The notes under the pieces were generated by a model. The model was not told where the DNA came from and made no database searches. It was given only the letters and a program-made list of their open reading frames with translations. The translations under genes and the position numbers were made by a program. Shown here in pieces: positions 55,455 to 56,379 of a stretch of DNA of 64,000 nucleotides. This DNA is from a virus. Position 1 is the stretch's first letter. Each line of letters begins with the position of its first letter. Where the stretch lies: IMG/VR virus record IMGVR_UViG_3300045256_000135, positions 32,001 through 96,000 of that record. One strand, 5' to 3'.

Positions 55455-55477
55455 TTCGTTATCACGCACTCTATCAT
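55455..55477 (+). promoter_or_regulatory. Class-2 promoter candidate
   Basis: TTCG-N13-TATCAT. Confidence 0.55.
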
Positions 55478-55557
55478 CATGTTTGACCTTACAGGGACTA
55501 AGCTCTGTAAGAGGTGGGATCAATCCTGACGACTGATCTTTCTGCGTCGAACAATGA

Positions 55558-56379
55558 ATGTACGAACAGGTTTCTGTTCTCGATAGCACTGGTAAACCAG
55601 TCTCCCCTTGTTCTCCAGCTAGAGCAAGGATCCTAGTCAACTCGTCAGAGGCTGATTGGGTAACGACTGATCCACCCGTTCTTCGTCTACGGCGAGCTGT
55701 TCGTACAACCCCAGAGGTATACACCATGATTTCGAATTTCACCGACTACTTTCGTGAAGAGAAGGACATCTGGATCCAGAACATCTCTAGCAACCAGGTG
55801 ACTTGTCAGTTTGAGATTAGCACGGGCAACTACCAGTCAGTGCTGATTCAAAAGTCGCGAGATCCGATCAATCTAACTCAGCAAATTCCGTTTCAGATCA
55901 TCAAGAATTCACCAGATTTCAGAAAGCTGGCGAATCGTCGACCGCCGGTGTTTCGGGTGATGACTGAAGATGAAGTCAAGGCATACTACCTCCAGAAGGC
56001 TGGAAATGCTGGTGATTGGCGTGAAGCGTATGAAGCAGCTGAAGAGAAACGGTTGAACGTTGCTAACCGCGTCATTCCAGAGAACACGACAGTACTCCCA
56101 GCTACTGAGGTCAAGCCTGAGGTGGTCGAGCGTGTTTCGGAAGAAGACGTTATTCATCCGAAAGTGGTGTACCTTATGATCCAGGTTGATGGACAAATTC
56201 CAGACGCCGAGAAGATGAAAGCACACGAACTGCTCACAGAGCTTCAGTTGATCGAAGACGAACTGAAGACGGATGACCTCGACTACATTCTTGCGAAGGG
56301 TTTCTGGAAGTCCGTGAAGACCTGGGCCAAGTCAGTGATGGCAAAGAAGTCTGCCAATACAGCTGAAGGCGACGGCTGA
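55558..56379 (+). CDS. Protein with an N-terminal PLMP/RRXRR-like domain fused to an uncharacterised domain
   Basis: VLDSTGKPVSPCSPARARILV...PPVLRL; possible internal start ATG 55726 with AGAGGT. Confidence 0.7.
   Translation: MYEQVSVLDSTGKPVSPCSPARARILVNSSEADWVTTDPPVLRLRRAVRTTPEVYTMISNFTDYFREEKDIWIQNISSNQVTCQFEISTGNYQSVLIQKSRDPINLTQQIPFQIIKNSPDFRKLANRRPPVFRVMTEDEVKAYYLQKAGNAGDWREAYEAAEEKRLNVANRVIPENTTVLPATEVKPEVVERVSEEDVIHPKVVYLMIQVDGQIPDAEKMKAHELLTELQLIEDELKTDDLDYILAKGFWKSVKTWAKSVMAKKSANTAEGDG

Follow-up and report, generated by a model that had tools for sequence, protein, structure and literature searches.

A PLMP domain of the IscB/IsrB type joined to a non-nuclease head-module protein behind a structured leader in large phages

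We describe a gene from the head module of a large uncultured hot-spring phage (IMG/VR record IMGVR_UViG_3300045256_000135; 183,244 bp, rated complete), which lies in a stretch of 64,000 nucleotides (nt) covering positions 32001-96000 of that record, hereafter the window. Its product begins with a PLMP domain, like IscB and IsrB, nucleases ancestral to Cas9, and continues into a core protein in which no nuclease is detectable. The fusion recurs across a family of phage proteins, usually behind a folded leader and with a second, internal start from which the core alone could be made. We read this, with a probability of roughly 0.45, as one head-module gene for two proteins, whose long form may bind its own leader and limit its own synthesis, by analogy with the RNA contacts of the domain in IscB and IsrB, while the core would still be made from the internal start.

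The N-terminus as a PLMP domain

The gene comprises the following parts:
55558-56379, + strand: open reading frame (ORF) of the long form, 273 amino acids (aa), made of PLMP domain, linker and core; an open frame directly after an in-frame TGA
55564-55707, + strand: PLMP domain, aa 3-50, defined by the RRXRR hidden Markov model (HMM), an AlphaFold2 (AF2) model and superposition
55726-56379, + strand: short form, the conserved core of 217 aa, defined by a conserved internal Shine-Dalgarno (SD) element with ATG and by the public gene call (P0001)

From ATG 55558 the long form reads MYEQVSVLDSTGKPVSPCSPARARILV...DPPVLRL, in which an earlier note, made from the letters of this DNA alone, had recognized the PLMP/RRXRR pattern. 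The Pfam HMM for RRXRR (PF14239) bears this out: it aligns aa 5-52 with its positions 1-48 of 174, and its score, 28.2 bits with the entire 273-aa product and 32.0 bits when only aa 1-56 are searched, is above the cut-off of 25. In a genome-wide search of the 183,244-bp record, the PLMP gene (28.7 bits) gave the sole match to this model. The RRXRR match ends at model position 48, and Pfam has neither RuvC nor HNH at E<=10 in the 273-aa protein, as the note had also claimed; the sole PHROG HNH match covers aa 3-52 (E 0.17). The sequence features named in that note are likewise all present at their positions.

An AF2 model built with 33 homologues has a mean predicted local distance difference test (pLDDT) of 87.8 and a predicted template-modelling score of 0.49. 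Its PLMP part (pLDDT 88-96) is a small β-sheet with one helix, the strands lying at residues 5-8, 14-18, 32-37 and 40-44 and the helix at 20-28. By structural alignment, the first 50 residues superpose on five solved IscB/IsrB structures with Z 9.8-7.5, a root-mean-square deviation (rmsd) of 0.7-1.6 Å over 48-49 residues and 23-31% identity:
9k2z_A: Z 9.8, rmsd 0.8 Å, 48 residues
9k30_A: Z 9.4, rmsd 0.7 Å
8dmb_P: Z 8.6, rmsd 1.5 Å
9nvu_P: Z 7.9, rmsd 1.4 Å
9liq_A: Z 7.5, rmsd 1.6 Å

In a Foldseek comparison with the PDB, the top eight matches are all IscB chains, and initiation factor 3's N-terminal domain (IF3-N) is matched as well: 1tif at E 0.11, probability 0.99 and rmsd 4.1 Å over 50 columns, and also 6o6d and 5lmn_X. 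Both RRXRR and IF3-N had been suggested by the note as families against which to compare this N-terminus. The former is matched, whereas Pfam IF3_N has no row at E<=10 for either aa 1-56 or the whole protein. At the P-L-M-P site the window has GKPVSPCSP, as against GRPLMPTTP in DtIsrB and NNPLMPTHP in TbaIscB, so that the window retains the two prolines but has V-S in place of L-M; in most relatives this position is LSYT or LEYT. Judged by sequence profile and model together, the N-terminus is a genuine PLMP domain joined to a non-nuclease protein.

Conservation of the fusion

Relatives were gathered by a word-indexed search, a scan of IMG/VR (41 loci), a scan of metagenomes (5 loci) and a profile search. 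Nine came from the word-indexed search; PF14239 is on record for four of them, and the others had been called from the internal Met. The match begins at query residue 1-5 in 37 of the 41 IMG/VR loci, L041 and L042 have a PLMP-like N-terminus in frame with the rest of the protein, and L021 and L039 are without PLMP. The profile search, run over 1.84 billion representatives, yielded 277 proteins at E<=1e-10, of which 151 reach E<=1e-30. Among the best 150 (representatives at 50% identity), the match begins in 87 at profile position 12 or before, in 52 at positions 53-70 and in six in between, the other five being fragments. Homologues thus do have the N-terminal extension, a matter that the note had raised. 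When ten long or divergent members were scanned, nine matched RRXRR at E<=0.01, one of them above the cut-off, and in the tenth (P0085) the motif is visible by eye.

The frame is open through the PLMP part in 34 of 36 non-redundant loci (these and later non-redundant counts leave out L007, L016, L017, L019, L023, L024, L029, L030, L032, L038, L040 and L041). In all of 14 locus pairs the proportion of nonsynonymous differences (pN) in the PLMP part is below that of synonymous differences (pS), with pN/pS values such as 0.037/0.463, 0.092/0.719 and 0.159/0.551, similar to the core. Because pN is well below pS in every pair, the PLMP part appears to be translated and kept. On these comparisons, the fusion is old, under purifying selection, and in use rather than a relic. 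Being both conserved and under such selection, the domain has therefore probably been co-opted, one of two options that the note had proposed, the other being an ancestral module. The stretch linking PLMP to the core varies, and it is often long or of low complexity. The gene family is spread across phages of 150-210 kb, where it normally follows the major capsid gene.

A few members are unusual in the build of this region. Two tandem PLMP-like domains occur in three loci (L036, L037 and L040, with frames from ~4395/4704) and in the representatives P0026 and P0035. In the metagenome contig L046 (146-1021), the PLMP part is split over two frames and the middle of the domain is missing, while the leader (145 nt upstream) and the internal SD-ATG are intact, so that it represents either real decay or an assembly error. 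The 335-aa P0090 combines an ABC-transporter permease fragment (PF00528) with PLMP, core and a low-complexity end, and probably comes from a chimeric or misassembled contig.

An internal start at the PLMP-core junction

The element in question is:
55713-55728, + strand: internal ribosome-binding site AGAGGT (55713-55718), 7-nt spacer and ATG 55726; supported by conservation of SD and ATG

Every locus has a Met in the variable linker just ahead of the conserved core, which has a sequence like NFTEYFREERDVYVQN. A 4-mer SD at -16..-5 of this junction ATG is found in 31 of 35 non-redundant loci (L033 is absent from the count because the search pattern missed its core), as against 174 of the 1372 other internal in-frame ATGs of the same loci (12.7%). 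The corresponding binomial p of ~5e-24 is not a true probability, since the loci are related. The junction SD is kept even though the linker residues differ by clade (RE, RR or LEG), and in L011 and L047 it serves a Met two codons upstream. The PLMP-less homologues L021 and L039 start at exactly the junction Met. At the upstream start, a 4-mer SD at -16..-5 is present in 12 of 29 chosen long-form starts, and ATG 55558 of the window has none in that range. Hence, by the conservation of its internal start, the gene seems to encode two in-frame products of 273 aa and 217 aa, the second being the PLMP-less isoform from ATG 55726 after AGAGGT that the note had envisaged and also the form given by the public gene call.

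At the long start itself (55554-55560) the window reads AUGAAUG, an out-of-frame AUG overlapping an in-frame UGA, and the same arrangement is seen in L026.

A conserved folded leader before the long start

Three elements of the leader are used below:
55488-55511, + strand: hairpin A, CUUACAG (55488-55494) paired with CUGUAAG (55505-55511); from the minimum free-energy (MFE) fold and relatives
55509-55526, + strand: leader core AAGAGGUGGGAUCAAUCC, an extended SD-like AGGUGG running into hairpin B (GGA/UCC, loop UCAA); from conservation
55528-55548, + strand: candidate hairpin C, GACG/CGUC, weak in the window; from the position of the third hairpin in relatives

The earlier note had folded the leader into an outer clamp (TGTTTGA 55480-55486 with TCGAACA 55547-55553) and two further helices, CTTACAGGG (55488-55496) with CTCTGTAAG (55503-55511) and GATCAATC (55518-55525) with GACTGATC (55531-55538). 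The MFE fold of 55452-55575 contains all three, and the relatives uphold them in part: hairpin A is backed by L003, L044 and L045, but the outer clamp and the GATCAATC/GACTGATC helix have no counterpart in L003, the nearest viral relative of the window. In place of the latter helix, the relatives favour a short hairpin within the conserved GAGGUGGGAUCAAUCC. A hairpin of other sequence occupies the spot of hairpin A, just before AGGUGG, in L003, L044, L045 and two further clades. The stretch AGGTGGGATCAATCC is identical at 15 of 15 nt in L003, despite a protein identity of 46% and saturation at synonymous sites (pS 0.84).

A common plan is visible in three clades: the 3' arm of a hairpin abuts the word (A/G)AGGUGG, within which a second short hairpin begins, and after a third, usual hairpin there are 4-25 nt to the start. 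The AGGUGG itself sits 35-45 nt from the start. In the ten sequences of the clade with a DPRE linker, five of ten pairs are changed on both sides, and 96% of cells are paired as against at most 52% when the pairing is slid (0 of 500 shuffles); the equivalent of hairpin B covaries there, four of its five pairs being changed on both sides. In the seven sequences of the clade with a SIRRK linker, at least five helices take up the whole 196-219-nt gap that follows the capsid gene; the five helices scored have 17 compensatory pairs of 31, and 93.8% of cells are paired as against at most 51.5% when slid (0 of 500 shuffles). The third hairpin is clear in L003 (AGACC/GGUCU), L044, L045 and the SIRRK-linker clade, in which helix 4 has six compensatory pairs of seven. 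The covarying leader that the note had thought worth seeking in homologues is thus present in these two clades. The fold alignments leave out L001.

The clade of the window (the window, L003, L044 and L045) has a leader of ~70 nt and keeps the first hairpin with wholly different sequences. Its hairpins were set out of register by MAFFT, and its support comes from per-sequence folds and conservation in place of a covariance model. By eye, the succession hairpin-AGGUGG-hairpin is recognized in 24 of 34 PLMP-bearing non-redundant loci. We conclude from these comparisons that in the relatives the long start lies behind a conserved structured leader.

The leader core is unique in the window and in the genome. 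With R1, the covariance model of the DPRE-linker clade, each locus and each whole genome of a relative shows a single strong site. Patterns of the leader core with up to three mismatches find no second copy in the window and, in the whole record, only two three-mismatch rows on the other strand, where a control pattern gave one. Outside the leader, the window holds no convincing repeat of any of its 14-mers, and a rough search for other hairpin-flanked words resembling AGGUGG gave no convincing candidate. The leader of a tail-chaperone-like gene (107992-108444 in G000) has no visible likeness to that of the PLMP gene.

In the relative G003, R1 has a weak second match (E 0.25, 14.6 bits) on the minus strand at G003:47835-47911, equal to L058 1500-1580. 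This site precedes a tail-chaperone-like gene that follows two tail-tube paralogues, and shares only the first hairpin and GGGAGG.

A proposed self-limiting long form, and its alternatives

Three publications bearing on the function of the domain and its setting are cited here from excerpts (PMC9581776, PMC9640706 and PMC7412058). In IsrB, the PLMP domain is reported to bind the tandem terminal hairpins SL7/SL8 of the ω-RNA and to touch an SD just upstream of the IsrB ORF, for which the authors suggest a regulatory role in the control of IsrB (PMC9581776); in IscB, it recognizes terminal hairpins mainly without sequence specificity (PMC9640706). In L021 and L039, the only two homologues that lack PLMP, the hairpin array is missing as well, and a plain strong SD lies 6-8 nt ahead of the ATG. 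The PLMP HMM has no match within ±5 kb of either locus, whereas controls are matched at E 3.8e-28 and 1.4e-23.

Because of the precedent in IsrB and IscB, and of the joint loss of domain and leader in two of two loci, we propose that the PLMP part of the long form would bind its own leader. Once bound, it could block the loading of ribosomes at the upstream start, and the long form would thereby limit its own synthesis while the core would still be made from the internal start. PLMP-tagged protein would then be supplied in a small, fixed amount, outnumbered by untagged copies.

Several observations weigh against this proposal. The leader fold in the window, at -30.5 kcal/mol, has a z of only -1.05, and 30 of 200 shuffles are at least as stable. 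Hairpins B and C are short, and in the window neither hairpin C nor the pairing of 55518-55525 with 55531-55538 is significant. R1 has no match in the window or in G000, and the leader motif is not alignable in L001, L006, L011, L028, L031, L033, L036, L037, L042 and L047. At the gathering score, no Rfam family, HEARO included, is found in the window and six loci; a search of 55200-55800 had nothing at E<=10 except a chance snoRNA row, and four loci had nothing at E<=1. A descent of the leader from ω-RNA thus finds no support in Rfam. The co-loss of PLMP and leader is counted on two loci (2/2), the leader of the SIRRK-linker clade, with ~200 nt and five helices, is more than a simple operator needs, and the eight listed sequencing runs that contain this DNA are all of DNA. 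Finally, the PLMP domain of IscB and IsrB also packs on the RuvC and TI domains (PMC9581776, PMC9640706); a protein-binding role is therefore equally precedented.

That last point leads to the first alternative, which we regard as rather unlikely but as the closest contender: the PLMP domain may be a protein-contact or targeting module that docks on a head protein, or a capsid-targeting propeptide cut by the prohead protease, with the leader an unrelated mRNA feature (for instance a processing site, a stabilizer or a standby site for ribosomes) that follows the strongly expressed capsid gene. The position in the head module beside the capsid gene would suit such a role, as would the variable, long or low-complexity linker, which is what a tether or cleavable spacer would look like, and in PaBG, a related phage, head proteins undergo proteolytic processing (PMC7412058). 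It would leave unexplained, however, why the structured leader has gone exactly where PLMP has gone, in two of two loci, and it comes without a candidate partner protein. The conserved single-stranded SD-like AGGUGG, 35-45 nt from the start, also suits a translational device better than a processing site. A predicted complex of PLMP on the core scored 0.00 against a mark of 0.32, a result that counts neither for nor against docking.

The leader could also be a functional RNA in its own right, forming with the long form a ribonucleoprotein (RNP), a nuclease-free OMEGA-like particle that acts in head assembly or is packaged; the packaging RNA of phi29 is comparable in principle. We consider this improbable. 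It would account for the size of the SIRRK-clade leader, where at least five helices with 17 compensatory pairs of 31 fill a gap of 196-219 nt, beyond the needs of a simple operator, and it would fit the head-module location and the fact that PLMP is otherwise known only as the ω-RNA-binding part of RNPs (PMC9581776, PMC9640706). In the window and its nearest relatives, however, the leader is short (~70 nt), our scan saw no separate promoter or RNA 3' end, and there is no Rfam match. There is an equally slim chance that PLMP and its hairpin pair are a free-standing nuclease-free module, with the RNP of leader and long form working in head assembly or within the capsid, and that this module is the source of the RNA grip of IscB and IsrB or an early offshoot of it.

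Two other explanations fare far worse. That the first 56 codons are left over from a decaying homing or transposon nuclease of the IscB/IshB type, with only the 217-aa form functional, might seem to agree with the public gene call of the window (P0001), the 52 of the best 150 representatives that start near the junction, the frame-shifted PLMP of the L046 contig and the want of a nearby SD at the long-form ATG, but is nearly excluded because of the selection on the PLMP part (pN < pS in 14/14 pairs), and it also has to contend with an open frame in 34 of 36 non-redundant loci, a confidently predicted fold superposing at 0.7-1.6 Å, a fusion spread over 151 representatives (E<=1e-30) and the tandem PLMP domains of some members. 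It is scarcely more credible that PLMP mimics IF3-N on host ribosomes or initiator tRNA and so alters late host translation: the fold likeness is found by Foldseek (1tif over 50 columns at probability 0.99, 6o6d, 5lmn_X) and is published (PMC9581776), but Pfam IF3_N does not match at E<=10, the PLMP domains of IscB and IsrB match far better (Z 7.5-9.8), and neither the head-module location nor a fusion partner from a structural module suggests a host-takeover factor.

Comparison with known systems

To our knowledge, the PLMP domain has otherwise been described only within IscB, IsrB and IshB. The last of these names was reportedly given by Altae-Tran and colleagues in 2021 to proteins made of PLMP and HNH only. 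Compared with the PLMP domains of IscB and IsrB (9K2Z, 9K30, 8DMB, 9NVU, 9LIQ, 7UTN and 7XHT), that of the phage protein has the same small fold, sequence family and N-terminal place. However, the PLMP motif is PVSP in the window and LSYT in many relatives, and no RuvC, bridge helix, HNH or TI domain is detectable after it. The leader has neither a guide segment nor a match to HEARO or another Rfam family. Unlike the IscB and IsrB genes (IS200/605), the phage gene is fixed after the major capsid gene (31/32 loci), a contrast that does not include a search for transposases. As in IshB, the domain stands outside the full IscB architecture; IshB keeps HNH, whereas the partner in the phage is a 217-aa protein with no detectable nuclease and no known fold matched.

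On the regulatory side, T4 gp32, T4 RegA, the coat protein of MS2 with its operator and the ribosomal proteins bind their own leaders and autoregulate their translation. The logic we propose would be the same, with a structured element near the gene's own ribosome-binding site, but of the two in-frame products only the longer would come under the proposed operator, and the putative RNA-binding part is a domain otherwise known from RNA-guided nucleases only. Nested in-frame genes with internal starts are familiar from phages in lambda C/Nu3, phiX174 A/A* and T7 gene 4A/4B. The PLMP gene resembles these in having one frame with a conserved internal SD-ATG, the short product corresponding to the C-terminal part of the long one, and differs in that the additional N-terminal part is a PLMP domain, of an RNA-binding type. 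As described in the excerpts of the IsrB paper, SL7/SL8 offer a further likeness, the phage ORF being likewise directly preceded by tandem hairpins flanking an SD-like element (PMC9581776).

The nearest GenBank phage, and the only near GenBank relative of the window, is Virus Rctr197k (KX853510), whose Rctr197k_050, annotated as 'similar to hypothetical protein', is 42.6% identical over the core. It shares the location directly after the capsid gene, the PLMP-like N-terminus and the internal SD-ATG, but has 379 aa with a longer linker and a C-terminal tail, and the AGGUGG hairpin motif is not recognized in its leader.

What is new, then, is the architecture and the setting; the domain, like the regulatory logic proposed for it, is already known. 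In the excerpted text, the only published hint at the origin of PLMP is its distant likeness to IF3-N (PMC9581776), and within the literature covered, which excludes subscription journals, we found no published description of PLMP with a protein of the phage capsid block. Across a large family of big phages (151 representatives at E<=1e-30), selection has preserved the domain with no nuclease attached. It invariably sits on one head-module protein, in most cases after a conserved folded leader, and the gene has its own built-in route to PLMP-free protein. This provides a small natural system in which to ask what minimal RNA a PLMP domain recognizes, and whether the contact between PLMP and hairpin began as a translational switch before it became a scaffold for guide RNA. 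Were the module free-standing, as considered above, it could be the source of the RNA grip of IscB and IsrB or an early offshoot. The family also appears to be systematically mis-annotated, given that 52 of the best 150 public representatives start near the internal ATG, although some may truly be PLMP-less.

The core protein

The only PHROG match of the core is weak (phrog_17686, E 2.6e-4), to a family without known function. The N-domain of the core, modelled alone, reaches pLDDT 91.1 and has no convincing solved fold among its matches, the best being CRP/FNR-type domains at Z 4.2, with Foldseek E>=0.98; structure comparison found nothing like RNase H or HNH for the core model. Matches of the C-terminal helices have Z 5-7, which for helical bundles is non-specific. 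In BFVD only uncharacterized proteins of jumbo phages are matched, including those of PaBG, Motura, BcepSaruman and phiRSL1. The ten best of these rows span E 3.5e-9 to 1.4e-3, phiRSL1 is weaker at E 0.066, and the protein atlas gave only unnamed viral clusters at a score of 0.81, under the lead level. In hhalign comparisons, the post-capsid genes of Motura, phiRSL1 and PaBG were not matched (probabilities 0.07-0.21).

The structural match of the core in PaBG is S5VV81. PaBG gp81 is a virion protein in the excerpted account (PMC7412058) and was rejected as a counterpart of the core, as it lies upstream of the capsid gene and not after it.

Genome setting

Around the PLMP gene, the following features were recognized:
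52391-53605, + strand: major capsid protein gene (phrog_2522 major head protein, E 2.3e-52)
53625-53662, + strand: terminator-like hairpin 3' of the capsid gene, a 17-pair stem followed by a T run
53811-55451, + strand: six small, tightly packed ORFs between the capsid and PLMP genes, from the ORF list
56388-56439, + strand: terminator-like hairpin 3' of the PLMP gene, a 14-bp stem (56388-56401/56415-56428) followed by GTTTACGTTTT

All genes of the window are on one strand, and five tRNA genes are present. A head-morphogenesis, MuF-like protein is encoded upstream of the capsid gene (45815-47707), and the annotations of these neighbours, capsid and MuF-like, place the PLMP gene in the head module. 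The capsid protein has distant kin in the jumbo phages Erwinia Y3, Dickeya JA11, phiRSL1, Motura and Bacillus phage G, with 21-34% identity among the matches listed. Of 32 loci of relatives, 31 have a homologue of the capsid gene ahead of the PLMP gene, and in 25 of these 31 the gap from capsid gene to long start is 68-219 nt, as against 1952 nt in the window. The difference coincides with the six-ORF insert (53811-55451), which has no counterpart in most relatives and leaves 106 nt of noncoding leader before the long start; five of the six ORFs were tested against Pfam and had no match.

The note had credited the unit with a terminator and a class-2 promoter of its own. The former has a counterpart in the terminator-like hairpin at 56388-56428, which was read directly from the sequence, since its loop is longer than the 8-nt limit of the terminator scanner. 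The latter found no support: the promoter scan found no sigma-70-like site on the + strand between 53808 and 56430, and no recurring motif was seen.

Several of the inserted ORFs are rich in Cys, such as 55221-55451 (76 aa, with several CxxC-like pairs) and 54657-54887, and L011 and L047 likewise have a small Cys-rich ORF ahead of their PLMP gene. In L003, the 3' end of a tRNA-like sequence (GGTTCGAATCC...CCACCA) occupies ~1483-1518, after the capsid gene and before the leader. Farther along the window, ORF 57236-57766 has a weak match to the phage lipoprotein family phrog_462, and ORF 61163-62896 has both methyltransferase-like and glycosyltransferase-like matches. Outside the window, a small lipoprotein-like ORF (MKKLLFSFTLICMLVV...; 107314-107785 in G000) lies between a tail-tube homologue and the tail-chaperone-like gene, and is followed by a terminator-like hairpin.

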